DNA from: Schmidtea polychroa
Lineage: Eukaryota
Assembly: GCA_044892525.1 (NCBI GenBank)
Contig: CM097886.1
Span: forward strand, 78,616,001-78,680,000
Reading direction: 5' to 3'
DNA length: 64,000 nt
In this document: one piece after another, positions 5,619-59,760 of the stretch
How positions within the stretch are numbered: position 1 is the first letter of the stretch
How the letters are laid out: each line of letters opens with the position of its first letter
Translations under genes and position numbers: made by a program
Notes under the pieces: model-generated
Seen by the model: only the letters and a program-made list of their open reading frames with translations
What the model was told of the DNA's origin: nothing
Databases searched by the model: none

Positions 5619-5995
5619 TGTTGGGCTGAGATCGGAAAAGATTAAATTATAATAATTTCCTTTATGTTCTTGCTTCTGTTTTAACATCAAATAGGTAAAA
5701 CGGTAAAACTGTCGTTGGAGAAACCCAAATAACACCAAAAAAGCAAAAAAATTAACTAAAATTAAAGAAAAGAAACACCAAATAAACAAGATTAAGAAAA
5801 TAACAAGAGGAGAATAATTAAAAAAAAGTAAAATTAAATTAAACCGCAAGAATTAACATTTAAAAACAAAATAGGGAAAATTAAAATACATAATATCACG
5901 AGAAAAGATACAAAAACACCATAATTAAAACAAAAAAAAAGAGCCAACCAGGATTGACTAAAATAAAGCTGTGGGAATAATGTAATATTAAACAA
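5619..5995 (+). mobile_element. LTR-like segment starting TGTTGGGCTGAG
   Basis: Starts with the same 12-mer as the 20460 terminus read on the minus strand, has a similar A-rich body and is followed by a gag fragment. 3' boundary and TSD not established. Confidence 0.5.
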
Positions 5996-6022
5996 TTAAT
6001 GTTGTTTTAATATTATGAAAAT

Positions 6023-6430
6023 GTGGTAAAAATAGAATTTGAAAAACGTTTTGTCTTACAAGCTATCCGGGCAATGGAAATCAACAAGATCATAATTGAA
6101 AATGTTGGAAAATTCGATGGCAAAAATACAGAAGTGGAAGAATGGTTCGACAAACTTGAAATTATTTTGGAAGCCAAGAATGTGAAAAATGTCATGCATG
6201 TAATGCCATTTTTACTTGAAGGGCAATCCTATGCAGTTTTTAAACAGTTAAAGAAAAGCAACACGACAATGGATTTTGGTATGCTGAAGAAGGAATTATT
6301 GAAAACCTTCGGTATGAGAGAGCAAGAATCTTTTACGAAACTTTTACAGAAAAAGTTATTAATGGGTGATAACTTGGATGTTTGTGTAAATGAATTAAGG
6401 TCACTGTTTTATGAATTTTTCATTCACTAA
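6023..6430 (+). pseudogene. Ty3/gypsy-like gag (capsid) fragment
   Basis: KFDGKNTEVEEWFDKLE...MPFLLEGQSYAVF...LKKELLKTF resembles retrotransposon capsid motifs. Truncated by a hAT end. Confidence 0.6.
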
Positions 6431-6539
6431 TTTTTCTAAATTTAAAATTTTTTACATTAAATTTATTTCAAGTAAATAAGTTTTTCATTTCTTATTAAAA
6501 GATTAGTAAAAGTGCAATAAAAAATTGCAAATCAAGCAA

Positions 6540-6616
6540 AAAAAAAATTAGGTGTGCCGCGAAAATTTTTAATTCAGCCAAGTGTGCCGTGGCTCAAAAA
6601 AGTTTGGTCTACACTG
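6540..6616. mobile_element. hAT (Charlie/SPIN-like) right end
   Basis: gtgtgccgtggctcaaaaaagtttggtctacactg is a typical hAT subterminal region plus TIR. No partner end identified. Confidence 0.55.
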
Positions 6617-7475
6617 ATATAGGAAATCATTCACGATGATGTAATAATATTAGAGACATAATTCTATTGATAATCAACGCCAACAGAATAAGTAAGATTG
6701 ATTTGGATATCTTCCACATCATAGAATTTTCTGTACCGTTAAGGGGATCCTTTTAGTTAGAAAAGATTTTCCGTAAATCTAAGACCATAATCCACGATCA
6801 TCCATTCGAGCGTAAATTGTTCATGAGAAATATCATCTGCCTGATTGAGAAATCGTGATTAGAATATCCGCCAGTGAATTTGACGTATCTGAACAAATTC
6901 GAGTTGGTACTACAATTGATCATCGGAATGAATTCGATTAGGCACAAAAATTGACACATGGTGACGAGTGAAATAACTGGCGGTAGATCAATTTCGTTGC
7001 ATGTAAAGTAAGACGACAACGGAGTGCAATGTGAATTGTAGGGAATAACCAGTAGGTGGATTGCTGGTTAGTGTGATACGATAATCAATTAGATAATGAG
7101 AATGTTCTCAGCATCAAATGATCAAACTTCAACAGCTACACGGATAACCTAATCGACGAACAAAGTCTATCGAGGATAAACCTGTCTGCCATGAATTACA
7201 TTCAATTAAAATTAATTAAAGTAAAAATATATAATTTTCTTTATTCGGTTATATTATTAATTAGTTCAATTTGGTTTACTGGGGCAGATTTCCCACTCGC
7301 TAGTTTAGATCCTTACCATGACTTCTATTCTGCCCAAAAGTTCTTTTTAGATTTCTCTTAGTGATATACCTAGGAACGTCAACAGTCGAATTATAATACG
7401 AATACAATCTTCGTTTTCATTTTCCTAACAAATCAAATCATGCTTACCAATCGTTATTTCTAATTTTTATAGGTA

Positions 7476-7880
7476 ATGACTACCAACTCAACGACCAAGT
7501 CTACTATCCGACCCTGCTATTCTTGCGCAGACAAAAATGCGACCATCAAGAATGTTCAATCTCAAGTCGGTTTGCTCAAACCTAAATCACCCCAGCCGTT
7601 TCGAGTGTCTAACCCTCCAGTGCAGTAAGCAAACCCCAAGTGCCGGCAATTATCGCGAGCCGAGTGTAAGAAGAGGCAGAAGGAACGTATCATAGAAAAG
7701 GAAAGCAAGTGGAACGCGAGTGCCACTAATGAAAACATCGAGGCATTTCCGATGACGTCATCTAATACCTTTACATAATGTCGCTTTATCAATGCCACTG
7801 GCATGATATGGAAGGAAAATGCATCCGAACTATTTGATTTGGAAGCTTTGTTCGCTGAAGCAGTAGCCGAAAAACAATGA
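7476..7880 (+). pseudogene. Decayed paralog of the orphan gene at 17279-18022
   Basis: One frame with two internal TAA: RPCYSCADKNATIKNVQSQVG..., RQLSRAECKKRQKER, GMIWKENASELFDLEALFAEA. Preceded by the acceptor tttttatag. Confidence 0.8.
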
Positions 7881-8642
7881 GAATGTCTTCCGCGAGATCC
7901 TATTTTACTTAGTACAATTTCATGACTCAACTTTCATGTCTTGCTCTAGTTATCTTTAATGTATCTGTTGTCTTTATTGTAATATACTGTAATAATAATA
8001 AACGTTGTTCTATGTGAGATATTAGTCTTAATCGCAATAAATTATCAGATTATATTTCCAACAGTAATTATGATCTATATTGTTTTGTTTTAACATTGGC
8101 TGATGTGTAGTAGTGTGTTCTGACAGTATGGAAAGCCCAAGATCTTCACGTATTGTCCTTCTATGATATCTCTCCGTCATGATACAGTACCAACATGAAA
8201 TAATGCATGGGTATCATGACGTGAGATCAGTCATTTTGGGTACCACTTAGGTTCAACAATTCTATGAGAGAAATTGAAGTGAGAGACCCCCATCCTCTAG
8301 ACAAAAATTAAAAGTCGATGTCAACACAATTATGAATAACTTAAGTGAGTTAAGTTCCAATTCCATGTTTATAATAAATAATATTGGGAAAAAATACTAT
8401 TTTAGGCTCACGCAGACGTAACCAGCTCAAAATTCGTCAGAACATAGCACACAGATACAGCACTAAGTAAAGTAAAAATAAAAATATGTAAAACATCAAC
8501 AAAACACCAATAAAAGAACCTACACAACACCAAAAGGATAAAACACAAAGATAAAATAGAATAATAATAAAAATAAGAAGTTACAGACACATATATAACA
8601 TAGCCAAATAACAAAAAGTAAACGAATTTGAAATAATGGTGA

Positions 8643-11435
8643 CATGCGCGTAGCCAGGGGGGTGCAAGGGTGCATTTGCACCCTTTCTTCCAGACGAAAT
8701 AATTGAAATGCTAGGTTTTTTTGTCCGAATAATTGCCTCATGATACATTTAATTGAGCCAAGAAGCTTCTATTTATTGAATATCGAAGATTGTCCTAATG
8801 GAATGACCCAATAAATTTTTCAAGGGACGATACAATGTAAATAAACAATATTATAGTTAGTGCTAGATAAAATTAGTTTCATATTTCGTAAAGTTGCAGT
8901 AAATAGCAACTATATTTTATGTCTTTACTTGCATTGAATTTTAACAGCCATGAAAAAACATCATCAGAGTTCGCTTTCCAAATTTTTTGCTAAGACATCA
9001 AAAGTTGATACGGAGGAAAACGATTCCGATCAAAACTTCGAGTGACCGGTGGCCGAAAAAGGGGGGTCTGAACAAAAGGAGGAACGTAGCGCCTTTCAAA
9101 GCCAAGAAGCTGATATAGAGTCATATCGGCGGTCACAATTAAATGACTCTGAAAAAATTGATGCTTTGGGCAAGCTTAAAAATCTTCCACCACACTTCAG
9201 TTTCCCGGCAGTAATGAAAGGGGCAACAAAGCGGAAATTAAGTTATCACTGGCTGTGTGAGTTTGATTGGCTGATTTACTCGGTAGCAGGAGATGGACTT
9301 TATTGCAAATTTTGCTTTTTCTTTGCGATCGGGGATCAAGTTGGATCACTGCTTGTCCGAACACCTTTCAAGAATTATCAAAAGTGCCGTGAAACTTTCA
9401 CTGCTCATGCAAAAGCGCCATACCATTTACGATCAATTGAAACAGCAAAAACTCTCTATGTAGTCAACAAAAACCCCGAAATAACCATTGAACGACTGTT
9501 GACGAGACAGAAAGAAGTTGAAAGAAAGCAAAATTTGATTCTTTTGGAAGGAATTTTTGACACCATCAATTATCTCGCTCGACAGTCATTGCCGTTTCGA
9601 GGGCATAGAGATTCTGGCGGGATATTTAACGACCAACAGGGCATCAACGACGGAAACTTCAGAAATCTGATTAGACTTCTTGCTTCGAGGGACGATTTTT
9701 TCCTGAATGCATTAGAAAGTTCGCCAAAAAATGCTACATACTTAAGTAGCACAATGCAGAACGAAATAATCGTTATAATTAATGAGATTGCTTTGACGAA
9801 GCTTCTTCAGAAAGTTATAAAGTCTGAATTTTTCTCTATTCTCGCCGGCGAGTCATCGGATGTTTCCGGAATAGAACAAATGTCGATTGGACTCCGTTTT
9901 ATCGACATTGATGCCGATAATATTGTTGAAGCATTTTTAATGCTCACGGATTTGTGTGATGTTACTGCCAAAGGACTTACTGACTCATTGTTAAGCGTGG
10001 CAAACACGATGAAGTTACGAATGGAAAAGTGTCGAGGAATTGGCTTAGACGGAGCAAGAGTGATGAGTGGAAGGAAATCAGGCGTTTCGGCAATGGTCCG
10101 GGAAAAATTTCCTCTGGTTACTTACGTACATTGTTTCAGTCATCGATTAAGCTTGGTCATTGGAGAAAGCTGCAAAGTAAAGCAGATAACCCTGTGTCTT
10201 GGCACAATTAAAAGCATCTACAACTTCTTAAACTCACCGAAAAAACAAGTTGAATTTGGCAAATCAATCGAGAAAACAACGCCAGAAACTGCTAGGAGAA
10301 AGCTAAAAAATACTTGCGAAACGCGCTGGATTTAACGACACGAAGCAGTCAACACATTCTTCGAACTTTTCGAGCCAACAATTGACGTGTTGAATGTAAT
10401 TTCGGAATGGAGTAACAACGAAGATAATGTGAAAGCTCAAGATTTTCTTAACACAGTGTCGACTTTCGACTTCATTATTACTCTTGTCACATTAAAATTC
10501 GTGTTCAAGTTCATCCTGCCGTTAAGTCGGCTTCTGCAATCACATTCAATAGATTATAGCACTGCCATAGCATCGGCCAATGATCTCATCGAGAAGCTTG
10601 AGACGGTTACTGAGAACAGCAAAGACCATTTTCAAACCTTATTCTGACGTAGCATCTTGCTTTGAAATTGAAATTTCATTGCTGAAAAATAAAGGAAGGC
10701 CAAGATTAGATGGAATAAATCAGCAGCCTGTAGAGTTTTATTATAGTTGTCTGTTCATCCCGCTGTTGAATTCGGTATGTCGAGAGCTCAAAGAAAAATT
10801 TCGAGAAAACGCAGTGCTTGCAAATTTCAAAAATATAATGTTCAACCCAGAGTGGCTGTTGAGCAGAGAAGTTCAGAACAGTCTTATGCAACTTTACCAT
10901 TTCTAAGTGGAAGATTTGAAAGGATCAGTGCAAATGTTTTTCGGAGAAGTTGAGATGTGGCAGAAAAGACTGGGAAATGCAACAGTAAAACCACGGACTT
11001 CAATGGAACATTTAAAAGCTTGCCCTCAAGAAATGTTCCCAAACGTGTTCCGATTGCTGAAAATCTATAATGTGATTCCCATAACAACCGCTGACGTCGA
11101 ACGCTCTTTCAGCAAAATGAAGCAACTTAAAACGGACGACAGAAATACAACAGGAGAGGAAAGACTCAACGGACTAATGTTTCTGAGCATTCATCGTGAC
11201 ATGGAAGTTAATTTTGATGAATTTATATGCGAGTTCCGCAAAGGAAAACGACGACTTGACGTGTGAATTCCTTTGATCAAGAATAATTGTTATTACCATG
11301 TTTAAATATACTTATCAAATTCATTCGAAATAGCTCTGGGGTTTTGAGGGCAAAACTTATTACAAATTTCTAGGACTTTTTTTAATAAAAAAAATATTTT
11401 GCATCCCCCCTCTGAAATTTCTGGCTACGCCACTG
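8643..11435 (+). mobile_element. Full-length hAT transposon (ZMYM1/THAP12 P52rIPK-like family)
   Basis: 8-bp TSD AATGGTGA (8635-8642, 11436-11443). TIRs CATGCGCGTAGCCAG / CTGGCTACGCCACTG. Confidence 0.92.
8950..11266 (+). pseudogene. hAT transposase pseudogene
   Basis: TTF-type Zn finger (LYCKFC), FRGH, YLSSTMQNE, YVHCFSHRL, ETRW, TTADVERSFSKMK. In-frame stops at 9043, 10333 and 10904, one frameshift near 10640, and ILAGE in place of the usual ILADE. Confidence 0.9.
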
Positions 11436-15329: not shown

Positions 15330-16707
15330 TGAAGTCAATGAAATAGAAGAAAATATTGCAATTGCAATAATTGTGAAACAGAAGTTAAACGAGGCAAAAG
15401 GAGATGTCCGAGGCTTTTTACAATAAATAAATACGAGTTCCATTTAAAATCAAAGCACGTGATATATTTAAAGTTGTTAAAGAGGTCTAACGAAGATATA
15501 GATCTGGGTAAATTGAAACAAACTACTTTTGTTGATATTTTTAAACATTGTAATATTTGGGAATTAGAAAATCCAAATTCAATAAAAATTTTATTGCGAT
15601 TGCAAAAATGATATCATTAGATTTGCAACCATATTCAATTGTCGAGCAAACAGGATTTAAAAATCTTCTTAAATTTCTTGAGCCAAGATATATAATTCCT
15701 AGAAAGTACTTTTCAGGTAATGTGATTCCATCGATTTTCGAAAATTTACAACTCAGTCTTTCATGTGCTTGACTGCACTTTGGGTTTCTGAGGAATTTGA
15801 AAGAAAAAGTAGTCTCACTCATGCAAGCCTTTCAATTTACAACATATTGATGATAATATCGGTATTGAATTTGAAAAATCATTGATCGAATGGAATTTAT
15901 ATACAAAATGTTCTTTTATAGTACATGATAATGCAGCAAACGTTAAAAAGGGTTTAGAACCAAAAATATCAATCAAATTCTTTGTTTTTCGCATACGTTA
16001 CAATTAGTGATAAAAGATGTTATTGATAATTTTGATAAAATTCAAAAAATTCTATTTTCCATTCGAAAAATTATTGGATATTTTAAGAGTTCATCTATTG
16101 CAAATAGTAGATTAAAGGAAATACAAAAAAAATCTTTCAATGCCTGTTTTAATGCCAATCAAGGATGTTAAGAAAAGGTGGAATTCAACCTTAAAAGGTT
16201 TTATGAAATAAAAAACGGAATTTTAGTTTATTTTTCTGAAATTTCTAGTGAAAAAGAAGAATTACTAAATCAATTAGACGTTAGTTTAATTGAAGAATTA
16301 ATAAACATATTAAGTCTATTTGAAGAGATTACAAGAGCTCTATCATATGAGAATTCAACAATTTCGGAATTTATACCTGCTATTGAAATTTTGAGAAAAT
16401 CAGCAAATAAAATTTTTTCCGAATCTATTAATAATGAAATTTCCTTTAAACTTAATTTATCATTGATAGCAAGAAGTGAAAATATAATTTCAACATTATT
16501 AGATCCAAGATTTAAAAACAAAATATTTGATCCAGCAAATTTTAATTTAGATTTAATTAAAAACGAAATGATTAAATATTTTCCTAAATTTGAAATCAAA
16601 AAACTGAATTAAAAAATGAAATTATTTTTGAAAAAAATTCAAATATTTGGAATTCATTAGATAATTTTGATTCTCCTTGTGAGATTGCTAATTTCAAAAA
16701 TTCTTAT
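15330..16707 (+). pseudogene. Ac/ZBED1-type hAT transposase remnant, 5' part
   Basis: IAKMISLDLQPYSIVEQTGFKNLLKFLEPRYIIPRKYF, a CFSHTLQLV-like motif, TLLDPRFK. Multiple frameshifts. Confidence 0.8.
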
Positions 16708-17278
16708 TGCTGGGGTAGTGCTTGGTTGACTCTGCTCAATCTACGTCCTTGTCTAGGGGATGCGTGTCCATATCAGTACGCTACATACGCCCGTGTCAAC
16801 CCGGAGCAGGACCCCGCACAACCTGCCCTCCAACATAGCACCCGCGAATTGCTTCACGTTGGAAATGTGCTATGCCGGCGAGACTCCAGTAAGCAGGTGA
16901 GCCCCTACCTTAGGACTACTCCTTACTGAGGCCTCGACTTCCCTTTCTGACGGCCGATGGAAGGACTTACGTCTGTTTACCTCATCAGATTCTCTCTCTA
17001 CCCTGACCCATTGGTCGGCACAAAATTGACCACTGCCTCTCGAACTCAAAATTTACTCTCGCTTTGCGAACACTACTCTGAACCTTTACCACAGCTAGTT
17101 AGATTTAAACAACAACAAGGTTTTAACCAAAAATTTCTTTATTTTATTATCATGATACATTAGATAATTATACACTACATAACAAGTACACTTGGTGGAG
17201 AATAGATTAAGAAGAAAAGGAGTCATGATAGTATATTTGTCCATTCGCACCCTGCACGGTTGTATTGTGTTGCGGCCC

Positions 17279-18022
17279 TCACTTCTCCCACCCCGCATCC
17301 GCCAATAGCTCATCTAGATCAAAAAACTCGGAGGCATTCTCCTCCCAAGTCACACCAGCGGCAGATATGATTCACCCTGGGATTCCTACGGTCAGATCGA
17401 TCGTTACGGGTGGATCATTCGAAACACTTGGGGGGTTGGCAGATAGTTCTCGTTGTTTGACAATTGCCCGTTCACGTTGGCGCTTCTTACGCTCCGCTCT
17501 GGACAATTGGCGACGCTTAGGTTTTGAGGGGTTAGCAGACAAGATTGCCGAGGACGTCGTGGCTGAATGCGATACCTTGCCAGTGCCGGGAGTAGGTACG
17601 TCCGATGGCCTGGGGGAGAGGTCGGCCTCCACACATTCCTGACAAGATCTTTTCGACAAGGGTGGCGAACTAAATGAAGGTTCATGGTGAACGGGGAAGA
17701 CATTGTCCGCTTCTTTAATCGGAATACTAACGATCCTTCGGGTTGTAGCGGCTTGAACGTAAACTTTATGTAGAGCTTCGGACTGCTCTTTGATTAGGCT
17801 ACGCTGAGCTCTACTTTCGCTTATCAAAGCATCGCGACAATGCTCACTGCGGTACAATTTCTTTTGAACTTCCTTCATTTGTACTGGGCTAAACCATGTA
17901 CCTTCCAGATCGTCGATTTTCTTTTTATATCGACCGATCTGGGCCTGTAATTCTCGGATTACGGTGTTTTTGTCGGCACAGGAGAAACAGGGTTTGAGCG
18001 ACGGCTTCGAGCTTGGCAACAT
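17279..18022 (-). CDS. Orphan protein (~247 codons, one internal TGA at 17372-17374)
   Basis: Long GC-richer open frame with CFSC, a coiled coil, KRRQLSRAERKKRQRER and, in frame after the TGA, WEENASEFFDLDELL. Homologous to 7476-7880. Confidence 0.75.
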
Positions 18023-20049
18023 TTTTGATAACTGTAACAAAGAAACAATGAGCATAAGAATTAAGATCAGCGAGCTCTACTAAACTAGTATGGACACAAT
18101 CATTTGTTGATTTTCGTAAAATTAAGTAAAAGGGGAAAAATTAAATGATATAGTTTCGTTAGAAATAGCGTTAATTGCATTCAGTGAATTTTTAGATGTC
18201 TATTTAGGGTGTAAGAGAAATTAACATATGGATAATACTCTGCCAAAAATTTATGGTTATACTTAAAATATTCATTACCTACCGTTATCTGAGATTTTCA
18301 AATATTTACGTGAAAAATGACTCGCGAATGTATTGACATAATGGACATTAGATTTACAGTTTACCACAGAAATGGTTTAGGAAGAATCAGGAATATTTGC
18401 ATGATTGAATAATTAATGCTCATTTTTGCACATAGCTTTTCGACTACAGATATTTATTTTTGAAAAACGTAAAACAAAATTCTCCAGTGCCGCGTGAACG
18501 ATCCTTAAATTAATGGCCCCAAATTGTAACTCATATTTGAATATTAAATTCAGAAAACCCGTTTAATCAACGTGCTACTATTAGATTTTTAATAAGTCGC
18601 GTATGATCAGATTTCTATCCCCATCCTAAAAATCAATTTAGTTATTTTTCATTATAGAGTCTACTGGTGCAATCAACCTATAAAATTCAGTCGATTATTA
18701 ACAGTCATCCGGCGACGCATGAATCACTCGTAGAAATCATTAGCCACATGAATCGGAAAGATACATATCTATTGGAGATAATTATGTCATGAGCGTGTGC
18801 TTCAATTTTTGTTCTCACCGTCAATAGCGGGCTGGGAAAAGGATGCATGCGGCATATGTCAGTGTGTATTTATATGTGGCAATGCGTGTGATTTGCCTTG
18901 TCTGTTTTCTTACTATCTATGTCAACGGGTTGCAGCTGATCGTCTCACACTGCGAGTTGGAATTATTTTAGTTATTCAATATGTTCTCTATGAGTAATTC
19001 TCACCGCGCATGAACGTTGGAATTTTATTCTCGCGATGTGCCGTTCCCTCCGTTTTTCAACTTGGGTGTTGTGATTTCGGGAAATATTCCCAGCAGTTCC
19101 TTCAACAGAAATCTCTCTTATTTTGGTCGAAAGAGTCATTTATAGAAAGAACCTCGCGTTGCCGCTATCGTGGATTTTCAGAAGCAATGGAAAAATTACA
19201 GCGTTTGTTGACAATTATATTTATACTACAAATCTTTTGTTGAATAAATCTTTATTTATGCTCTCTATATTCTGATTTCGCATTTGATGAACCTATTTGT
19301 ACGCAGTTAATTTTGATAGAAAAATATTTTTCTGCTAAAAGATAGAATGTCAGTTGATGTCAATATACGATTTCTGATGTCGGATGAAATTTCAGAGTGT
19401 GATGTTTACTAAGAGTTTGTAGCCACCTCAGTCATTTTCAATTCAAATTTGCTCTACTTTTCAATATTGGAATATATTCCTCTGTACTTTAAACCCGTGC
19501 TTGCAGCATTTTATTTCCCTCAGCGACGGACCCGTGAGGAAGCCCCCACATTCCGGCCCACGTCAGCTGCGTGATTGAAGAGATCCACACCCGCCGGCTG
19601 AGCTCCCGAAGGCTCCTCATACCATGGCGTGGGTCTCCTCAACTCCACGTTTCTCAAAAAATAATTTTAGCATAATCAATACGTTCGATGACAAAACATA
19701 GTATAAAGATTTATATATCATTAACCTTTAAATTAATTTATGAACTATAAAATCATTAAAAAATTGACATCGAATGGAGAAGTTTTTATTCAAAGGTTAG
19801 GTTAATATAATAGAAATATTTAATCCTTCAAAAATAAATTTCATAACAGCAATACATCCTTACTTTATTATTTGAAAAATTCTGTAGTTCCAAAGGCTGA
19901 GCCGAAATATAAACTGATCGAATCGGTTATATGAATGAGTAGTCTATAGAACTGTCCCTAATAGTCGTCTGAGTATGGTTTGGTTTTCCTGATTGTCGAG
20001 TACCTATAATTGGTTTGGTTTTAACATTTTTATAGTTAATACTATTCTT

Positions 20050-20135
20050 ACCTATAATTGGTTTGGCTTTAACATTGACTATAGTGAATTTGCTGTTTAC
20101 TTATATAGGTATTTTTTGTTTATGCGGACCAATCA
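20050..20135 (-). promoter_or_regulatory. Putative CCAAT box, TATA box and splice donor in the element terminus
   Basis: The minus strand reads ctgattggtcc...cctatataag...ccaattatag|gtaaga (donor at 20051). Confidence 0.45.
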
Positions 20136-20460
20136 GAATTGAGTACCGCCTTATTTTATTCATTTAATTTATTTTCCTTGTTTTTGGGTTATTTCTTCTT
20201 ATTTTCTTTATTAAAATTATGTTTTTATTTATTTCCCTTAATTTCCTTATTATCTACTGCCTTTTACGTTATTTTTCGTCATTCTATTGTCCTATTTAAT
20301 TGTTCTTATTTTTATGTTTTTGTTTTAATTCTTATTTTCTAATTATTGCTTTTCTTATATTCTATTCTATTTTATTCCTCAATCTATTTATTTTATTTTT
20401 TTATTTTTCTTTAGTTAAGTTTAACCTGATTTCCCAGCTATCTTTCGGCTCAGCCCAACA

Positions 20461-20737
20461 TTATTTAGCTTTTGAATCCGAGATAAATAATTATTTATTT
20501 GAAAACTTATCTTCAAAGGATGAAGATATAATTAATTACTGGAAAACTAATTCTATCAGGTTTTCTTTACTTTCTAGCATAGCAAAACAGTTTCTATCGT
20601 GCGCTTCGACTAGCGTTCAATCTGAGCGTGTTTTCAATTGTGATAGAGATGTAATAACTGATCATAGAGCTAAAATTCTTCCTGAAAATGTTGAAAAAAT
20701 TGTTTTTATAAAAGTAAACAATAAATTTTTAAGTTAA
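20461..20737 (+). pseudogene. hAT transposase C-terminal dimerisation domain (3' part of 15330-16707)
   Basis: IINYWK...LSSIAKQFLSCASTSVQSERVFN...RAKILPENVEKIVF. Confidence 0.88.
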
Positions 20738-20949
20738 ATTATTTTTAAACTGGTTTAAAATTTTTTTTTGTTTCGGAAATTTAATATGAAATATCAGCTA
20801 TAAATAAAATTTAAATGATCATAACAGATAAGTTATATTAATAATTAATATTAAAAGATTGTTTAAATATTCTTATTTCTTTTAAATTAAATATTATTTA
20901 AATTACTATACAATTATTATTTTTCATTTAATTACTATTTTTCAAACCA

Positions 20950-21170
20950 ATGCTACGTCGAAGCTTAAGCCGAATTGAACCATCTGCTGAAGATATAAAA
21001 GAAGTAGAAACTTATTTCAAATCTCAAAATATTTTAAAAGATAAAGATTTGTCAAAGTCTTTATTAAAGCCATATCGAGACAAGTACCATCGCGAAAAAA
21101 TGGGTATTTTTAATTTTATAATTTTGCTATATTAATATTTATTTAAGAAGTTAACCAACAAAACGAATGA
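20950..21170 (+). CDS. CDC26: CDC26/APC12-like anaphase-promoting complex subunit (58 aa, two exons)
   Basis: MLRRSLSRIEPSAEDIKEVE resembles the CDC26 N-terminus [20 protein letters not shown]. Exons 20950-21103 and 21148-21170, separated by a 44-bp GT-AG intron. Confidence 0.6.
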
Positions 21171-26808: not shown

Positions 26809-29373
26809 CAGGGATGGCAATTACATGGCACGCAGACAAAAAACTTCTGGCACTCTAAGAAATTTAAAAAAAGAAGTAGAAAAAATTCTTATTATAAAAT
26901 AATTACTGCTTTTTAAAAAAAAATTTGGACCCAAAATTTTAATCAACGGCTTTGAATTGAATTCTATATTTTTTTCTCTAGTTGGCTTTGCGTTATTAAA
27001 TAACGCAATTAATTATTAAATTTAGTTTATTTTGGCACTTTGATAAAAACCTATTTGCCAAAATAACGGTTATTTTGTACATACGTATATGGTTGTGTTA
27101 TAATTCTTGTATATTCTTACATCAGTTTTTAGTTTTGTTTTAACTTGTGCAGTTCAATAAAATTTGTGTTTAATTTTAAATAAAATTTATTTTTTGCTGA
27201 ATTAAAATGGTACCAAAAAACCAAAACTACAAGATATTCGTAGCTTTGTACTCTCTTGGACTGCTGATTACGGTTTTGTTAAACATGGAGATAAAAGTCG
27301 GTGCGGTCTGTGCTCTGAAATTATTGTATGTCGAACGTCTTCTATTAAGCGACATTTTGAAACCAACCATAAAGAAATTGCCGAAAAAAATATTGAAGAA
27401 AGAAAAGAACTAATTTCTCAACGATTAAAGATAGCTGAAAATCAATCGAATTCATTATCAAAATTTGTAAAAACCAACAGCAATGTTACAGAAGCTAGTT
27501 TTGAAATTTCTTATTTGATTGCTAAGCAATCAAAACCATTTTCTGATGGAGAGTTTGTAAAAACGGTTATGTTAAAAGCGGCCGAAAGTTTGTTTCAAGA
27601 TTTTAATAATAAAGAAAAGATTATTCAAAGAATTCGAGAAGTCCAGCTAAGCCGAAATTCAGTTAAAGATAGAATTTTAAAAATAAGTGCGAATATTTCT
27701 GATCAACTTTACAACGATGTTAATAGCTGTGACTACATTTCAATTTGCCTCGATGAATCAACAGATATTAAGTCATCTGCCCGATTAGCAATCATTGCAC
27801 GTTATCCGAAAGATAATGAAATGCACGAAGAACTTTTAAAATTAGCAAATATCCCAGAAAGAACAAGAGGTAGTGATATTTGTGAAGTTGTATTCAATGA
27901 ATTAAACAAACTTAAAATAAATATTAAAAAAATCATTTCTGTAATGACAGATGGAGCTCCTAATATGACTGGACCAGAGATAGGTTTTGTTAATTTATTT
28001 CAAAACCTAGTTGGTCATCCAATAATAGGCTTTCATTGCATTATTCATCAGCAAGTTCTTTGTGCAAAATTCGGAACTAGCGATTTCAAAGAAATATCAG
28101 AACAAGTTAATAAAATCATAAATTTTGTAGTTGCACGCGACATGCATAAAAGACAATTTAAAAAACTTTTAAATGATATGGATTGCGAATACGATACTCT
28201 CTTAATGTGCAATAGTGTACGTTGGCTAAGTCGAGCGACATCCTTAGAACGATTTGTGAATTGCTTGGAAGAAATTCGACTTTTTTTACACGAATTCGAC
28301 AGGGATCGTTTTAAAGAATTATATGATACAGAATGGTTAACAAAATTAATGTTTTTTACCGACGTAACATTACATTTAAACGTTCTTAATAAAAAATTGC
28401 AAGGACGAGGAAAAACAATTGAAGTTATGTTTGGATTGATAAAGGGGTTTGAAATTAAATTAGATATTTTTGTTAGAGATATCGCATCTGGAAAACATAA
28501 TAATTTTCCGAAACTTAAAAGTTTTTTAAATGAATCTACAATTTTCAAAAAAACTAATTGGAATTTTAATTACGAATTTTCTAAAGTTCTTGAAACTATA
28601 AAAGAACAATTTTCAAATCGATTTAAAGATTTTAAAAGAATTGATAGGCTGTTGAAAATTGTAAATTATCCGGACTTATTCGATATACAGGATTTCGATA
28701 ACAACCTTATTAATTGGATGAAATTAGAAAATTTAGAAATGCAGACAGTAGATTTGCAATCTAATCCTATTTGGACACAAAAATTTGTGAATATGCGAAA
28801 AAATATAGAAGAATTGGAATATCATCGATTGTCACAGGATGGAGAGTCGGAATGCCGCATTGAAAACTTGATATTGGAAGTGTGGAATAGTATGCCAGAA
28901 GCATTTGCTTCTGTAAAAAAATTAGCAATCGCAATGTTAACCATTTTCGCATCCACTTATTACTGTGAGAGTCTTTTTTCTGTACTTAATCATGTACTAT
29001 CAAAGACAAGAAACAGATTAACAGAAGAAGACTCAGCAGCTTGTATTACCTTACAATCGACAACATACCATCCTGATATTAAAAACCTTGCAAGTAATAT
29101 GAAGCAAAAAACTTCTAACAAAATTTAAGAATTTTTTATTAAATTTATTATTAAACTTTATAATTTTTTTTACTATTTCTTTATATTGAATAAATATTAT
29201 CACATGAACTCAAATATTGAAATTTATTTCTGTTTTCTTGTGAATAAAAAAATGAATAAAAAATGTATATATAGGTACATATAACAAATAAAAGTTACGA
29301 GGGCACGCGAAAAAAATTGAATTTAAATTTAGTTTATTTTGGCACTTTGATAAAAACCTATTTGCCATCCCTG
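26809..29373 (+). mobile_element. Full-length hAT transposon (Charlie/SPIN/GTF2IRD2-like)
   Basis: TIR CAGGGATGGCAA / TTGCCATCCCTG, 8-bp TSD CTATAGTA. Confidence 0.95.
27207..29128 (+). CDS. hAT transposase, ~640 aa if one 1-bp frameshift near 27216 is corrected
   Basis: BED finger (RCGLC...KRHFETNH) is in frame with the 537-aa ORF. Motifs SICLDESTD, TDGAPNM, HCIIHQ, RWLS and STYYCESLFS are intact. Confidence 0.9.
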
Positions 29374-32899: not shown

Positions 32900-34130
32900 C
32901 GATCTGAATATATGGGCATAGGTGACATATCGAAGAAAAATCGAGACAATAAGAAACGCAGATATGTCAGTTATTTGTCATTTGGTTTCAGAAACTGGAA
33001 ATGAAGTTTTCCAGACGCCCTATGTCTACAATGTATCAATATATTGACCAATAGGTCTTTAGCACCTGCTAAATTACGTCGTCGTTTCGAAATATGAAAA
33101 ATCTAAACTTTTCATTACGAAAACATTTAAAACGACCAACGAAAATGCCACAGAGGCTTCTTACAAAGTTATTGAATTGCACTTACAAGAGAACCTCATA
33201 GAATTGGCGAAACATTAATAAAACCACGTGTAAACTATATTGTTTTTTGTATGTTAAGTGTTGATTCATGTAGAAAAGTTGAAGCTGCATCACTTTTCAA
33301 CACTTTTTCGTGACACATTCACCATATTGCTCCAGATATCGAGTTAGAATTTATTTCTTGGCTACATCAATATGATGCATCCTTATTGCAATTAAACGAA
33401 TCCACCGATGTTGCAGATCTAGCAATATCACTAGTTGTCGTGCACTATATGATTTCAATAAAAGTATTGAGGACGATTTGTTTCTGTGTGAAAGTACCAC
33501 CGGTGAAAATATTTCTAGCAGTATGGCTAGTAACGCTATGATAGGAAAGGTGGCTGGTGCTGTAACATGCATAAAAACTCGAGCAAAAAGTAGTCACTGT
33601 ATTCTTCACAGACATGCAATGGTAACTAAATATATGTCAACCTTATTTAAAACTATGTTGGATGAAGCAGCGCAAATTATAAATTTCGTTAAAAGTTGTC
33701 CTTTAAAATCACGATCGTTCTAAGTTTTTTGTGAAGACATGTGTAGTAATCACACAACCCTTCTTGTACATACATTCTTGAACTTCAGAAGTTAATCAAA
33801 ATAATTTGGACTGTTTTCCAACACTTCATTTTTTTTGGTAGAAATGGAACAATCACTCGAGCTAGAAATTCAAACCGACATTGTAAATCATCTTTGCCAC
33901 TAACAAACATCCATCAATCAGTGTTTTCCATCTTTAAATGTAAAAGTATATAGCTGGGTTTAAAATCCATTCATTCAAGCACAGGGAAAATCAGTCGAAC
34001 TTTTTGATGCAGATTTTGAAAAGTTAATCGAAATGCCATTTCCAATCACCTATTTATGCGAGACATGTTTTTCACCGTATACGGCGACTAAAACAAAGTA
34101 TCGAATCGTTTTGACGCCTTACCAGATATG
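32900..34130 (+). pseudogene. Degenerate Buster/ZBED5 (SCAND3-like) hAT transposase
   Basis: Remnants LAPAKLRRRFE, LQLNESTDVA, HCILHRHAM, INFVKSCPLKSRSF. Many frameshifts. Confidence 0.8.
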
Positions 34131-34233: not shown

Positions 34234-35542
34234 CAAGGGTGGGCACGCATGGGTTCAATAAGAGCCATTTTCCGAAAATTTATTTTTTACAGAGCCACCA
34301 TAGTAAAGTACATATTTTTTTTTATTTCATTAATTTGAATAAAGAGACTAAAACGCTATTAAAAAAAAACAAAATAATTATTTCAAACATTAAGTAACAA
34401 ACATAAAAATCCATTAATAAAAAGTAATAAAATTTCTTGAATTAACGAAGACTTTTGGTCAAATCTTTGAAATTTGGTGTATACTTTGTTAAAGCTGTTC
34501 GCAGCAATTCTGTAAGATGCTGATTGGTCAACTGTGAACGATATTTCGACTTTACGAACTTCATTGTGGAGTACAAAGATTCACAACAATATGTTGTACC
34601 AAAAATTGAAATTAGACGGCAAGCACCTTGTTTTAAGTGTGGATATTTTGCCTCTGGTACGAGTTTCCTATATTCAACTATAGAAGTAGATTTATGGTGC
34701 ATTTGCAAAGCCTGGTCCTCTTTCATATCTAATAACTCCAATTCCCCAACCGCTTTTTTAACAAGTATTACTTCAGAAATTGGAAATCCATCTTCAATAA
34801 TATCACAAATAAATGGGTTCACAAAAAATGCAAATGTAGATTTATAACTTTTCAAATCTTCAAACCTACATTTGAAATCCGCTTGCAATTCTTCTAATTT
34901 TTCACTGTATTCGTTTACTTTTTCTTCTGTAATATCAATTATATTAGCTTTTATTCGTGGAAAATGATTAAATATTTTCGACCTAAGATCGTTCACAAAA
35001 AGCCGAAGTTTAGCTTCAAAACTAAATAACGTTTGTGACAAATCAATAATTATCTTTTCTTTTCCTTGTAAAGCCAAATTTAATGTTTGCAAATGTTCCA
35101 TAATGTCTGTAAGGAACATTAAGTCAGAAAGCCAAGTTTCATTTTCTAATTCTGGGTATGCTATTCCGTTTTCTTTGGTAAATATTATGATAGGATTTAG
35201 GAAAACACGAATAGAAAACTATACTAAAATATACAAACGACCGCAATCTTGTACAAACAAAATAATAACCAATCAAAATTCACTAAATTTATTTTTGATG
35301 CTTCTCTCTCGTTGTTATAACAAAGCGCCGCCTACTACAAAATAATTTTAAAAAGCAGTAAAATGTGAAAAACAATGTTTCGTTAATTTTTGACATTTAT
35401 GAAAATACAATTGCAACAAAAAATTTTTTCTCAAAACATTTAGTGAAAAATTTCAAAATAAAAAATCGAATTCGATTATCAAGAATTCAATTATCAATGA
35501 GCCGCAGTTTACTCAACGAAGAGCCGCATTTGCCCACCGTTG
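34234..35542 (-). mobile_element. Internally deleted hAT element (1309 bp) with transposase C-terminus at 34442-35119
   Basis: TIRs CAAGGGTGGGCA / TGCCCACCGTTG, TSD TTATATAA. Peptides FLTDIMEHLQTLNLALQG and FGTTYCCESLYS. Confidence 0.92.
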
Positions 35543-39353: not shown

Positions 39354-39843
39354 TTTTGGACGCTAAACTGTAGGATTACAAATTTGTCATTATTTTCGGG
39401 TAGTTAAAACGGCCTGTCTGTATCCTCCAGGTCTGTAGTAAAATTCGCCACTGCTTCAGATATTCATATATTCAAATAACAGAAATTTCTGTGTTGGACA
39501 ATAATTTATCTTATTCAATAATTGCTTAATTTAAAGTTAAAAATTAAATTTTTCATTTATACATTTTACTCAATAAAAGTACAAATCGACAATTCTTATT
39601 ATAAATTGGAAAATTTATCTAAAATATATAGATAAAATAATTGAAATGAAATTTATCCAATAGTGAAGCAAGGAAATCCAATGAAAACCACGTGAACGGT
39701 GAGTCATATGTGATATTAATGCGTAGGTTTACTTAGACTCTAACATGATCATTTCAAAATTTATTACTAAATGAAATTGAATTTGTTAATTAAAATTACT
39801 TAATTTAGTGAAACTTGTTAATAAATTATAAATTTATATTTAC

Positions 39844-40330
39844 CTTTATAATTGCAAAAGTAGTTGGATGCCTCTTTATCTGAATCTTCTTCTTCTTCAT
39901 TTAATGGCGCAGATTCAGGTCGAACCGTCCACGGTGAATTACGCGCAGATCGACGAGAACTCAACTCCGGAATAAAAAAATGCCCACTGATTTTCTCTGC
40001 TTCCACTTCAATAGAATTTCCAATATCTGACGCTTTAAAAAACTCTTCTAATTCATCATCGTTTAAAGCAGAATTTCGGCTGCTATATGATGTCGCTGGA
40101 CTTTCGTTATTTACAATGAATTCTTTTAAATGAGAAGTATTTGATGCAACATTTATATACATTTTTTGAGACACGAAACTGGAATAGGCACTATCATTTT
40201 TTGTTTCAGTTTTAGTAGATATAGGAGTTGATGAATTAAAATTTTCAGGATTAAACTTTTTCGTAAAATCAATTGATAAATTAATAGATAGATTACAATC
40301 TTCGCTATAGTCGTCAATAAGATCATTCAT
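39844..40330 (-). CDS. First coding exon of an orphan Ser/acidic-rich host protein
   Basis: 162 open codons between the acceptor ttttag|ATG and the donor AAAG|gtaaat, with an upstream exon ending at gtaagt near 40424. No recognisable domain. Confidence 0.6.
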
Positions 40331-47038: not shown

Positions 47039-49894
47039 CTATTGAATAAAGAATTAAAAGCCTATCTATGTACATAAAATTTGTGTGGGTAATAAACACT
47101 AAATTACAAAGAAATTTAGTTTTTGATGAGTTGGGACTATAACCATTGGATAGCGCATGCAAAACTATATAATGGGAAGTTGGTATTTTAAAAGTTATAT
47201 TTTTCATTAACTTTACATTTTTTAAAAGTTTTTTAAAATACTTAATTTTAAAAGTTATATTTTGTATGAAAATAAATTTTCATATTTATAATGAATTTTA
47301 GGTCATTTTTTAATCGTTTCTAAAAATGCTTTCTTTCACCAATGATTTGAGGAAGAATTTCTTTATGTGACTGATAGTCTGTCCCTTTCAATATTTTTTA
47401 ATCTTTTCCAATTTTTTAAGAATCTTTAAAATGAAATTTTATTAAATAAATTATAATTTATATTGTTCCATTTACCTCACCTACTTATAGAAAGTTGGAA
47501 TGTAATAAAGCACTTCAAATATCCTTAAATCGCATATTTTTATAACAAAATTTTCCTGTAATAAGCATTGGTTACCCATAATTTATTTTCCTTAGCATAT
47601 ATTTTTATTATGGGGTTTCAACATAATTTTAGCACAAGTTTTGACAAGTGCAATTAGACTATATTTAATTTCTAATATTTTCAATATTTATTTATTTGAT
47701 TTTACAAATTTTTTACATGTATTTTAAATTTATCTAGGCATTATTCAAATTAATGACAAATTAAATTTTTTGTTGATTAATCTATATTTTGGCATATTGC
47801 CAATTTTAAAAATAAGTCTTAATTTAGAATTAATATGTTTTCCAAGTTCCACTTATTTATAATTAAAAAAAAATCATTTAAAAAAATTACAATGTTAAAT
47901 CTTTCATTAAATTACAATTTTTTTTCTAAATTTTAGACGAATCTAATAATTGAAAAATACACAATTAAAAATAATTTTAACATTTTTTCATTAAATTGTT
48001 TTCAATTTTAGTGAAACATATGACTGAAAGTTGATCATTCACATTTTTATAATAAATTATAAATAAATTAATGTTATATTACTATTTTTAAATTGCATTA
48101 AAAATGTTTTTAATTTCACACGAATTATTCCCATTTACTTATTTTAAGTTATAACTACAACTTTAAAATTTAAAAACTAATCTACTGTCAAATTGTCAAT
48201 ACTGTTAAAGTCATCTAATTATAAACTTTTATTGTCTGACGATAATTTAAAAAATCGTCATTTTAATCGTCAACAGAAGATTATTCAATGAATAAGACCA
48301 TTGCTTAAGACCATTACTTAACAAAAGTCAACTAATTTTCACTATTTTATCCTTTTACCTCCTTGAAAAGGTTGTTTTGTATGTTGTGTACTTTATGTTT
48401 TTCATTGTCAGTGATCGAAGTTCATAAAAGGATAAAATAAAAGTGATTATTCAACTTTTCGACGCTCATGTTGTATAGTACTCGTACACAGTACACTAAA
48501 TTTAAAAATGCAAAAAATTTAAAGGTGAAGCAAGTAAATCTTAAAAACCTGAATTAAAAATAAAACTAATTAAAAATTGTTTAAAATCAGAAATCAATAT
48601 TTTTCAGGGGAGGTATGATGAGTTAGAAAATAGAAAGTTAGGATTAAATTGATAATTGACTGTCAACCAAACATGATATGAACAGAAGCAAAAACAAAAT
48701 AGGAATACGTCAAAACAAAATCAAATAAAATATGTCGGATCGACGAAACAGTTTAAAGAAGTCAGAATCCAAAAAGACACTAGAGACACTATAGAGAAGT
48801 TAGAAAGTGTCGGAAAGTCATTGTGTACTCAAATTATCAACCATTTGAAGCGTTATTAAGAATTACCCTTTGGTAAATTTCATTACTCAATTGTTTTTAT
48901 AAAAAATTGTACTGATGTAAAAAGCCATCGATTTAGTGAAATTGTGATATAAAGAAAATAAACTTTACTATTTGTTGAGTTCTGCGTGCTTTAATCAAAT
49001 GATCGAAGGGAGTCAGTAAATCAAATCTTACCGGAACAATGATATCAAACCTAATACTCACATATAATTGTCCACTGTGGTGTAGTAGACGCCTAAGTGC
49101 CTCACAATACTTTTTATAATGTTGCTTAAACAAGCTAATCATTGTTATTAGCACACCAAAAGGGTGCAATGCCACATAAATAGGAGAAACCTTCCACCAT
49201 CACTTGTATATCACTTAGAAACATAATTAAGCTTATATTTCCCCTAAATTTCTTCATTCTTCAAGAAACAAATATTTAATAATCGAAGAATAACTAATTC
49301 AACTCTTGCTACATTTCAAAGTACAACCCAATGCAATTTTGTATGCTTCTTCAAGTTCAAAATTTAAAAACTTTAATGATATTTCATTATCTTTATCAAA
49401 GAATATTGATTATCGGGAAACATACTCTCAAGATTTTGAAATGACAATTATTCTACTATATATGAAATTAATAGTAAGAAGTAGAGTATTTAGATAAAAA
49501 TTCAATTATGATATATTATATATTTTAAGACCATTTTCAACAATCATCTTATATAATAGAAATAGGTAGATATTTCACACTGCAGCACGACCATCTGGTG
49601 TAAAATTCTTTGACTTATGAGAAATAAGGGTAATTTTTATAAATAAGTAAATTGAAGTATTAATTCAAAATAATTAATGGATTTTAAATTTATGGTAAGA
49701 TATTTTCAAGAATCGAGGTCTTATAAGAAATTAAGGTAAAAAGAAAGAAATTAATTTAAAAAATAAGTAAGTAGGTAGTTAGTAGCGTACTGCAGCAATG
49801 ACCCCCCCCGGGGGGGTTCTGCTGCAACTTTTTTTTTGCTGCAACTTTTTTTTTGCTGCAACTTTTTTTTTTGCTGCAACTTTTGATTACGCAA

Positions 49895-51470
49895 TTTTTC
49901 AGACTATAGTGAGGGGGTCTCGATGGTCCTGGGATTTTCAATACAAAAAAATTTTTTCTATACAAAAACGATGGTCCTGGGATTTTCAATACAAAAAAAA
50001 TTTTTCAATACAAAAATCCGACTACCACTAAAAAAGCCAAGGAATTTTCAGACTATAGTGAGGGGGTCTCGATGGTCCTGGGATTTTCAATACAAAAAAA
50101 TTTTTTCTATACAAAAACGATGGTCCTGGGATTTTCAATACAAAAAAAATTTTTCAATACAAAAATCCGACTACCACTAAAAAAGCCAAGGAATTTTCAG
50201 ACTATAGTGAGGGGGTCTCGATGGTTCTGGGATTTTCAATACAAAAAAATTTTTTCTATACAAAAACGATGGTCCTGGGATTTTCAATACAAAAAAAATT
50301 TTTCAATACAAAAATCCGACTACCACTAAAAAAGCCAAGGAATTTTCAGACTATAGTGAGGGGGTCTCGATGGTTCTGGGATTTTCAATACAAAAAAATT
50401 TTTTCTATACAAAAACGATGGTCCTGGGATTTTCAATACAAAAAAATTTTTTCTATACAAAAACGATGGTCCTGGGATTTTCAATACAAAAAAAATTTTT
50501 CAATACAAAAATCCGACTATCAATAAAAAAGCATGGTAATTTAAGGTCTCAGGATATTTTCAATACAAAAAGGCGGTCTTCAATAAAGAAGCATGGTAAT
50601 TTAAGGTCTCAGGATATTTTCAATACAAAAATCCGACTATCAATAAAAAAGCATGGTAATTTAAGGTCTTAGGATATTTTCAATACAAAAGCTGGTCTTC
50701 AATAAAAAAGCATGGTAATTTAAGGTCTCAGGATATTTTCAATACAAAAATCCGACTATCAATAAAAAAGCATGGATTTTTCGAATTAAATTAAGGTGGG
50801 TCTCCTTGGTCCTGAGAATTTCAATAGACAAAGGTGGTCTACACTAAAAAACGTGGTAAATTTTTTAAAATTACAGTAAATTATGGGTCTAAAAATTGAA
50901 TTACAGTAAATTATGGACTAAGATTTTTAAATTACAGTAAATTATGGTCCAAATTTTTCAATTAAAGTAAATTATGGTTCAAATTTTTCAAATAAGGTAA
51001 TTATGGTCCTAAAAAATTAAATTACAGTAAATTATGGTTCTAAAAAATTATATTACAGTAAATTATGGTCTAAAAAAATTAAATTACAGTAAATTATGGT
51101 CCAAATTTTAAAATTACAGTAAATTATGGTCCAAATTTTTGAATTAAAGTAAATTATAGGCTTAGATTTTTCAATTAAAGTAAATTATGGTCCAAATTTT
51201 TGAATTAAAGTAAATTATAGGCTTAGATTTTTCAATTAAAGTAATGAATGGGCTCAAATAACTAAATTAAGGTTCAAAATTTTAAATTAAAGTAAATAAT
51301 GGTCCTAAAAAATTAAATTAAAGGTAATTATGGTCCTAAAAAATTAAATTAAGGTCCAAATTTTTGAATTAAAGTAATTAATGGGCTCAGATTTTTCAAT
51401 TAAAGTAAATAATGGCTCAAATTTTTCAAATTAAAGTAAATAATGGTCCAAATTTTAAAATTAAGTAATC
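49895..51470. repeat. Tandem arrays in the left TIR: 149-bp (~4 copies, with 40-bp subunits), 60-bp (~4 copies), ~30-bp (many copies)
   Basis: The 149-bp period is visible in ORF starts 49923/50072/50221/50370. The 60-bp unit runs from 50521, and the attacagtaaattatgg unit from ~50870. Confidence 0.92.
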
Positions 51471-51809
51471 AAAGTAAAAAATTAAAATTAAGTAATCAAT
51501 GGTAAAAAAAAATTTTAAATAAGTAAATTAAAGTAAATTAAAGTAAGATTTTAAAATTTATTAACAAAAAGTTGAAATAATAGAAGGTGTTTGAGAATTG
51601 AAATTTTTTAATGAAAATTTTAATGAAATATTTTTCAATGGTAATTTTTAATGGAAATTTTTATGGAATAATTTTTTAAGTTAATTTTTAATGGAAATTT
51701 TTAAGAAATATTTTTCAATGATAATTTTAGATGGAAATTTTTAAGATAATTTTTAATGAAAATTTTTATGAAATATTTTTCAAAGACAAATTTTAATAAT
51801 AATTCAACA

Positions 51810-52320
51810 ACAAACCAACAACTTAGTACCAACAACCAGTAACTTACGAACATGTATTTGCAACCAGTTACCTACAACTAGATACTAACAACCAGTTACC
51901 TGTTACCAAGTACATACAACAAAACATCCAACCAACTAGGTACCAGATACCGAGTACTCACAACCAACATCAACCAGGTACTAAGCATTAATTACCAACT
52001 ACTAAGTACCTACAATCAACTAGGTACTAGATACCAAGTACCTACAACCGACAACAACCAGGTACTAAGCACTGTCAACTAGATACCAAACACTTACAAC
52101 CTACAACTAGTTACTAACAACTAGTTACCTGATACCAACTACTCAACAACCACCTACCAAGTACATACAACTAGTTACTAACAACCTGTTACCTACAACT
52201 AGATACTAACAACTAGATACCAACAACCAGTTACCAACTACTAAGCATCATCAACCAACTACTAAGCACCTACAACCACATACCCATTAACTAGATACCA
52301 AGTACTTACAACCAGGTGAC
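51810..52320. repeat. Degenerate caactag(a/t)tac(t/c)aac minisatellite
   Basis: Repeated C/A-rich motif, recurring at 52740-52810 and 53220-53400. Confidence 0.8.
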
Positions 52321-55440: not shown

Positions 55441-55974
55441 TATTTCTACCCTTTTAAACATCTATCCGATTATATCCCTTACTTTCCCTAAAGATTCCGC
55501 CCACTTTAGCCCTTTAATATATATCAATCCTCTAAAAATCCTTAGAGAACTTCAAAAATATGACTTTTCATTAACTGTTATAGACACCAGACATTCTTCC
55601 ATAGAAATAATTTAGAAGCTAAATAATAAGAGCCCACTAAAAGATCAAAATTCACTAAAATTTCTACAAATATTTACCATCAAATACCTAACTGGAGATG
55701 ATATATATTGATTGACCATAATTTTTCATCGATTCAGCCAATCATTTTCAAGCACTATCAGCAAACTAAATTTCTGTATATCCAACAATAATTATCAAGT
55801 AAATTTAAAGTCCCTGATAAAGTTATGTTTTTTAAAGATCATCAATGTGTAAATATTCTTAGAAAATTATTGAAAACATTATTAAGTCAAATATATTACA
55901 AAGTTATCATCAAAAATCACTTAATTATTAGCCTAATTGTCAATAAATTTTTATTTTAAAACAATTCAATAAAA

Positions 55975-59594: not shown

Positions 59595-59760
59595 ATTACT
59601 TAAATTAATTTAGATACAAATAAAAAAAAATATATATATATAATATTAGTTTTACCATAAAAATTATGCATTTATGTCCTTACTTGTACATCACGCCTGT
59701 TTTCTGTAACTGTGTATTTCATCAATTTATACTATTTTGTGTGAGATTTACATAATTAAA
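59595..59760. repeat. Direct copy of flanking DNA 60798-60962
   Basis: attacttaaattaatttagatac...tacataattaaa is near-identical at both positions. Confidence 0.93.

Follow-up and report, generated by a model that had tools for sequence, protein, structure and literature searches.

A decayed gene of a family under purifying selection lies in a probable long LTR of a gypsy-type element in Schmidtea polychroa

The window analyzed in this study, a 64-kb stretch of Schmidtea polychroa DNA, has a G+C content of 29% and is full of hAT-type transposase remnants. On its minus strand, an open reading frame of 247 codons (copy A, 17279..18022) extends from a Met codon to a terminal stop and is interrupted by an internal stop at codon 217 (17374-17372). 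The original prediction described the product of this frame as an orphan protein with the appearance of an element-encoded transcriptional activator. The locus raises the question of whether the interrupted frame is the relic of a genuine gene, which type of element carried it, and what function its product may have had.

A second copy of the frame (copy B, 7476..7880), located on the plus strand, comprises 134 codons with internal stops at codons 51 and 101. Its core is deleted, copy B having no counterpart to approximately 115 residues from the middle of copy A. The three blocks reported to be conserved between the two copies were recovered as originally quoted by tblastn within the window (E values of 5e-13 and 1e-6). 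The last block lies in frame beyond a stop in both copies. The distance between this stop and the conserved Trp is 9 codons in copy A and 11 codons in copy B, indicating that the two stops occupy different aligned codons, as had been proposed. Two other readings of this region were rejected. A plus-strand frame (17232-17642) was considered as a gene and discarded as a shadow frame since the plus frames are closed across the conserved core. A short intron spanning the internal stop of copy A was discarded because no AG lies in the interval that separates the stop from the conserved residues.

Within the three blocks (92 codons), copies A and B agreed at 57 first, 73 second, and 31 third codon positions. 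The proportions of nonsynonymous and synonymous differences were 0.27 (pN) and 0.93 (pS, saturated), a contrast that is inflated since the codons were picked by protein likeness. The dN/dS comparison that had been suggested as a check thus gave a result far below 1 and not near 1. In an independent dataset, contigs from four public runs matched positions 16400-20000 in large numbers (1707, 2835, 1049, and 290) and in all identity classes from 99+ down to under 90, indicating that this region is repetitive and present in many divergent copies. Of the 40 variant sites listed for these contigs (534 more exist), seven fall within the ORF, and five of these are synonymous, compared with a synonymous share of 23-34% for the possible changes in the ORF (P of 0.009-0.05). 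Four of the 24 loose contig ends listed (849 more exist) lie inside the ORF and contain no stop in 37 codons. A hand count gave 16 synonymous codons among the 24 changed ones, the P value of ~6e-4 having been computed for 17 of 25, including one half-seen codon. The listed loose end that extends past the internal stop of copy A carries six changes, five of them synonymous, and ends at the same terminal stop as A. Decay from a full-length frame of ~247 codons, as originally proposed, is supported by the terminal stop shared with other copies and by the mostly synonymous changes past the internal stop of A. The gene family is thus genuine and subject to purifying selection; its frame continues to the tail, and both A and B have decayed.

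A single-sequence word-index protein search gave no relative among 796 candidates. A full HMMER scan with copy A detected eight proteins (E values of 3e-8 to 2e-4), and profile searches added five, bringing the number of distant relatives to 13 (P0001-P0013), all of one source type. The protein can thus no longer be considered an orphan. The 13 relatives match residues ~20-115 of A, with identities to A of 21-36%, and fall into two further subgroups, making three subgroups overall with a core identity of about 21-39%. A profile built from the 13 relatives alone recovered A at an E value of 2e-20 and gave no other match in the window. Residues ~20-115, which are absent from copy B and had been overlooked, are the best-conserved part of the ORF. 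Searches of the ORF protein against Pfam, PDB sequences, and phages gave no usable match, and no related locus or DNA pattern was found in viral and metagenome contigs. The ESM Atlas search provided leads only (best 0.85).

Twelve of the 13 relatives are fused to differing and unrelated host domains. These are probably gene models that took in a dispersed repeat; the family would explain, as contamination by a repeat, the chimeric nature of 12 models in public protein sets. In three of the fused models, four identical residues are present between the host part and the family Met, suggesting that a splice acceptor is located just upstream from the latter. The relatives also bear on the motifs that had been assigned to the protein. 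The CxxC motif is not a family trait since it was found in none of the 11 relatives having this N-terminus, six of which contain an HxxC motif approximately ten residues further on. The coiled coil, the basic helix, and the acidic-aromatic tail do recur. The Arg-rich stretch was detected in 8 and the acidic-aromatic motif in 6 of the 13 relatives, several of the models ending before these parts.

The protein comprises three regions, all encoded by the minus strand. The conserved helical core (residues ~20-115, 17678..17965) consists of a helix, a GTW turn, and a long helix. It is followed by an Arg/Lys-rich helix (residues ~169-195, 17438..17518), which may be a nuclear signal or a nucleic-acid-binding helix, and by the acidic-aromatic tail (residues 226-247, 17282..17347), located past the internal stop of A. 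AlphaFold2 predicted helices at residues 18-39 and 46-98 with a mean pLDDT of 77. In the full-length model, further helices were predicted at residues 175-195 and 237-241, with disorder in between. Two copies of residues 12-118 were modelled as a parallel, in-register coiled coil extending from residue 12 to 87. The homodimer model scored 0.57, versus 0.00 for the best of three controls, with a contact agreement between runs of at least 74% and a pLDDT of at least 78. In the reference sets, 21 of 30 microbial and 17 of 29 eukaryotic homodimers attained the homodimer mark, whereas no single chain did so (0 of 23 and 0 of 30, respectively). The modelling thus supports a coiled-coil homodimer, the model favoring binding. 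Cysteines C12 and C15 lie at the modelled dimer interface, where a shared metal site is possible.

Fold searches with the AlphaFold model, another of the checks suggested for this protein, recognized no family or fold: no E value was under 0.001, and the best Z score, 9.0 among helical hairpins, is uninformative. No DNA-binding fold was recognized either. A match to the N-terminus of an ordinary gag or ORF1 protein, which had been named as an observation that would speak against the original prediction, was not obtained in sequence, profile, or fold searches. In particular, Pfam, PDB-sequence, and profile searches gave no match to capsid, zinc knuckle, RRM, or esterase domains, and the fold matches were generic helical only. 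The 247-codon frame is complete and too short to add such domains.

The original prediction did not place the ORF within an LTR-like insertion, and this carrier is newly recognized here. Element A is a solo-LTR-like sequence of 3753 bp on the minus strand (16708..20460), the sense strand of which starts with TGTTGGGCTGAG and ends with CCCCAGCA. It is flanked by the target-site duplication TTAT (left copy, 16704..16707; right copy, 20461..20464, the sole such site in 19700-21000). The host sequence is a plus-strand hAT transposase remnant. The part located before the insertion (16172..16707) reaches the left TTAT, and the frame resumes beyond the right TTAT with the dimerization domain (20465..20737; Pfam PF05699, E value of 5e-17). 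The hAT frame is thus split by an element with TG..CA ends. One contig (X7 record 25) tracks the hAT sequence to 16708 and then leaves the stretch for 128 letters, as an empty site would; it may represent such a site. Run X7 was only guessed to be RNA; it also covers the hAT sequence and its gaps match those of the DNA-type run X5, indicating that it has no bearing on transcription or splicing. The 5' part of element A is A-rich in the sense strand (19895..20455) and bounded by a 13-bp inverted repeat. A contig (X1 record 8) bridges position 19895, indicating that the A-rich part is joined to the remainder of the element in other copies too. The A-rich stretch of 560 bp within the inverted repeat may belong to the element or represent a nested unit.

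Several candidate signals were identified in element A on the minus strand. A candidate splice acceptor consisting of a pyrimidine tract and CAG (18032..18075) is located 9 nt before the start codon. The sequence AATAAA (17143..17148), a candidate polyadenylation signal, is located after the ORF and precedes a G/T-rich stretch. A TATA-like sequence, TATATAAA (19710..19717), is a candidate promoter by its pattern, one of 7 matches in A, and precedes a GC-rich block (~19655-19520). Donor-like patterns are present at positions 16926 and 16908. The predicted fold of 19520-19655 (z of -3.06) was not retained since it depended on the folding window and was not exceptional among 108 scanned windows. 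The GC-rich non-coding blocks (16763-17004 and 19425-19666) matched very many short contigs and had the highest summed depth, a depth that cannot rank the parts of the element. The most shared core within these blocks lies at ~16891-16940.

Element B (2708 bp, 5619..8326, plus strand) is a probable second insertion belonging to a distant subfamily. It starts with TGTTGGGCTGAG, ends with GTCAACA, and is flanked by CAAT. Two occurrences of the 12-mer TGTTGGGCTGAG were found in the window, one for each copy and both on the sense strand of the ORF, the occurrence at 5619 being upstream from ORF B. The 3' block that B shares with A ends with CA at position 8326 and is followed by CAAT, the four bases also found before 5619. 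The combination of CA and CAAT occurs 27 times in the 64 kb, and TG..CA pairs with a 4-bp match often arise by chance in the window. The bounds of B, which rest on the ends shared with A, are thus probable and less sure than those of A. In copy B, a candidate acceptor is located 3 nt before the start codon and AATAAA is present at position 7997. The 3' blocks of A and B aligned better than 300 of 300 shuffled sequences. No significant similarity was detected between the A-rich 5' parts (18 of 300 shuffles as good) or between the upstream blocks (60 of 300 shuffles as good).

A hairpin located downstream from AATAAA was predicted from A alone (16830..16878, minus strand) and has a homologous counterpart in B (8174..8222, plus strand, aligned with 16878-16830). 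Sixteen of the 18 base pairs are kept in B, five of them through double (compensatory) changes. In this two-sequence comparison, random changes of equal number kept as many pairs in 0.14-0.26% of draws. The hairpin is a putative U5 or leader structure, and selection on a hairpin beyond the polyadenylation signal is consistent with transcription of a U5 from a 5' LTR. Searches of Rfam and with ARAGORN gave 0 matches each, and the idea that the element contains a hammerhead was dropped.

Each ORF copy lies inside its own TG..CA insertion, with probable bounds in the case of B. The proposal that the protein is element-encoded is supported. We consider it probable that A and B are long solo LTRs of a gypsy-type element. 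Gypsy target-site duplications are 4-5 bp long, and the duplications observed here are 4 bp long, TTAT for A, backed by the host hAT frame, and CAAT for B, which is weaker. The ends of animal Metaviridae LTRs conform to the consensus TGTTRNR..YNYAACA in the available text of PMC3601003. The 5' ends of A and B match this consensus, and the 3' ends have one mismatch each. The succession of AATAAA, a candidate signal, a downstream G/T-rich stretch, and a stem-loop is as in the R/U5 pattern of LTRs described in the same source (PMC3601003). Element A contains no internal gag-pol, and terminal direct repeats were found within neither A nor B.

An alternative is that a real gene is carried by something other than an LTR, either a non-autonomous, integrase-mobilized DNA element whose inverted ends are very short or nested fragments forming a mosaic. 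This we regard as unlikely. It would account for the fact that no partner LTR or pol was seen: the 64-kb window contains no complete element that has paired LTRs, gag-pol, PBS, or PPT, and the public contig collections gave no match. It would also account for the internal composition of B, which contains a gag-like frame (6011-6430, 450 bp from its 5' end, read from the sequence with weak Pfam matches only) followed by a hAT-type end (near 6400-6618). Both were read as nested fragments, and the gag-like frame counts against a clean solo LTR, which should have none. The 13-bp inverted repeat could similarly indicate that the 5' 560 bp of A are a separate element. In contrast, the inverted ends of A and B are only 5-8 bp long, whereas those of the Ginger1 and Ginger2 transposons extend over 40-270 and 50-180 bp, respectively, and the duplications TTAT and CAAT are neither CCGG/CCGT nor within RTATAY, the targets reported for these transposons in the portion of PMC2836005 at hand. 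A Ginger1 or Ginger2 DNA transposon is therefore excluded by end length and target. The conserved hairpin downstream from AATAAA, which fits a transcribed U5, also argues for an LTR.

Other features were recorded in the window. A hAT element with inverted ends (8643-11435) is flanked by the 8-bp duplication AATGGTGA (8635 and 11436), encodes a transposase broken by stops (DUF4371, PF05699), and interrupts an A-rich LTR-like piece. An uninterrupted hAT-type transposase frame of 640 codons (27206-29128) matched PF05699 and, weakly, the Spin-doc zinc finger. Additional hAT-type transposase fragments are present at 34442-35218 and 33376-33723. A large foldback-like inverted repeat (55855-59626; 56367-57310 versus 59319-58377, 92%) lies among tandem arrays, and 149-bp tandem units and shorter satellites occupy 49760-52740 and 59750-60380, with an inverted partner near 60000. 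A minus-strand frame of 170 codons rich in Ser, Asn, and acidic residues (39818-40330) gave no Pfam match.

Our best explanation for the locus as a whole, which we offer tentatively, is that a dead accessory gene located in a long gypsy-type LTR encoded a dimeric nuclear transactivator. According to this explanation, the ORF would be a dead copy of an accessory gene inside an LTR of ~3.7 kb, and A and B would be solo LTRs at two sites. In active elements, the gene would be read from a spliced RNA, with an acceptor just ahead of the start codon and an end at the LTR's own AATAAA. Expression could proceed from a promoter inside the LTR (TATA-like sequence at 19717) or by splicing from the 5' LTR as in MMTV (with donor-like sites at 16926 and 16908). 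The protein would dimerize via its coiled coil, the Arg-rich helix would bring it into the nucleus, and the acidic-aromatic tail would attract host coactivators to the promoter of the element itself. Since the protein has no evident DNA-binding fold, targeting might involve the basic helix, RNA, or a host factor. Splicing and nuclear location are features that we infer from sequence patterns.

Among the functional options, a transactivator is our best guess, with somewhat less than an even chance of being correct. The acidic motif of the tail may be VP16-like. The tail was evaluated, in tiles of 39 residues, with the activation-domain rules of Kotha and Staller, namely the original rule (equation 1) and the relaxed rule (equation 3), as given in the accessible text of PMC10550315. 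The last nine tiles of A satisfied the relaxed rule, as did P0001 alone among the 13 relatives; B and the remaining 12 relatives failed. In the controls, 10 of 1752 tiles passed the relaxed rule, a passing tile being present in 3 of the 9 control frames taken from the window. No tile downstream from the basic stretch satisfied the original rule in A, B, or the 13 relatives. The proposed activator thus finds modest support in the tail of A under the relaxed rule and none under the original one.

The same LTR might instead encode a Rev-, Rem-, or CERV-like factor that oligomerizes, binds structured element RNA via its Arg-rich helix, and exports unspliced genomic RNA. The Arg-rich helix, assigned by composition, is indeed separate from the coiled coil, the element contains a conserved hairpin of the RNA type, and the candidate acceptor implies the existence of spliced and unspliced RNAs. 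There is also a precedent, the CERV protein of Cer1, with a helix-hairpin-helix and a leucine zipper in the available description (PMC10309623), and one relative (1 of 10 rows) scored against the Pfam REV family with E values of 7e-4 to 1e-3, under the cut-off. We nevertheless judge such a role to be improbable, since the conserved tail is acidic and rich in W and F, patterns of leucine-rich export signals overlap the tail motif in only one of the eight sequences having it, and no link to CERV or Rev was found by sequence or fold. Slightly less probable still is an anti-silencing or host-modulating factor that would bind small RNAs or silencing proteins, a role also played by geminivirus AC2, which both activates and suppresses silencing (PMC8062710, in part). 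A dimer, a basic helix, a Cys/His pair, and an acidic tail are ingredients of AC2, and the fast divergence of the family, with its three subgroups, fits a conflict with the host; however, the domain order is unlike that of AC2, there is no homology, and the likeness is by analogy. A third possibility, that the functional form is the shorter product, terminated at the internal stop, or that the stop is subject to programmed readthrough, takes its appeal from A and B each being stopped before the tail within two codons of each other. We give it very little credence, since the stop codons differ in identity and position, a large deletion and another stop are present in B, and the block beyond the stop is under selection with the same terminal stop in other copies.

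Complex retroviruses are characterized by genes located within their LTRs and by dedicated regulators of viral expression. With an old, selected, and unnamed family in the LTR of a flatworm element of high copy number, this retrovirus-like design would extend to gypsy-type elements. An LTR-borne gene would survive in every solo LTR and would provide a testable handle on how the activity of these elements is maintained. The most far-reaching version, to which we assign a low probability, is that an invertebrate gypsy-type element encodes a Tat/Tas-like transactivator in its LTR, the promoter, the intron, the ORF, and the poly(A) signal all being contained in this repeat. If this were true, every solo LTR would be a self-contained regulator gene, and many such genes, scattered genome-wide, would act in trans on full-length elements and, possibly, host genes.

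Comparison with known systems delineates what would be new. Among planarian elements, the giant gypsy elements Burro/GYPSM1 have an internal region of up to 25 kb and a total length of over 30 kb, implying LTRs of several kb, and differ in that no ORF in the LTR is described in the available part of PMC6431247, the comparison being by description only. The literature covered, including excerpts of PMC6431247, PMC11410931, and PMC13524379, mentions no LTR-borne ORF in planarian elements; the original Burro paper and Repbase, outside this scope, may describe the LTR. The antisense ORFs of Retand (TRP28) and the ORF3s of bdelloids are extra gypsy ORFs with an unknown or regulatory role (PMC11963269, PMC5408684, both in part), located between pol and the 3' LTR and not in the LTR, and no homology to them was found. 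Geminivirus AC2/TrAP, a small viral regulator with a basic NLS, a Cys/His motif, and an acidic activation domain at the C-terminus in the text available (PMC8062710), offers a possible functional parallel, although there is no homology, the order of the parts is different, and the protein considered here has a long coiled coil and an animal host.

Two systems come closest. CERV of the Caenorhabditis elegans element Cer1, the worked-out regulator of an invertebrate LTR retrotransposon that was found in the literature, is a nuclear accessory protein of a gypsy-type element, produced from a spliced mRNA, with coiled-coil oligomerization and a Cys motif (PMC10309623, in part), features that are inferred or modelled for the protein described here. 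CERV differs by its length of 517 residues, its exons shared with gag in the internal region, and its M and G domains (same source), and the two proteins have no sequence or fold match. The sag gene of MMTV encodes a protein inside a long LTR and is expressed from a spliced RNA (PMC9147501, as far as its available text goes), splicing being a candidate feature here. A short R is also possible, R being 11 bp in MMTV (PMC3601003, in part). The sag product is a superantigen of a vertebrate retrovirus and a type II membrane protein, whereas the model of the ORF protein has no membrane segment, there is no homology, and the carrier looks gypsy-type. ORFs in LTRs (MMTV, PMC9147501) and a regulator in an invertebrate gypsy-type element (CERV in Cer1, PMC10309623) are thus each already known from the published text available.
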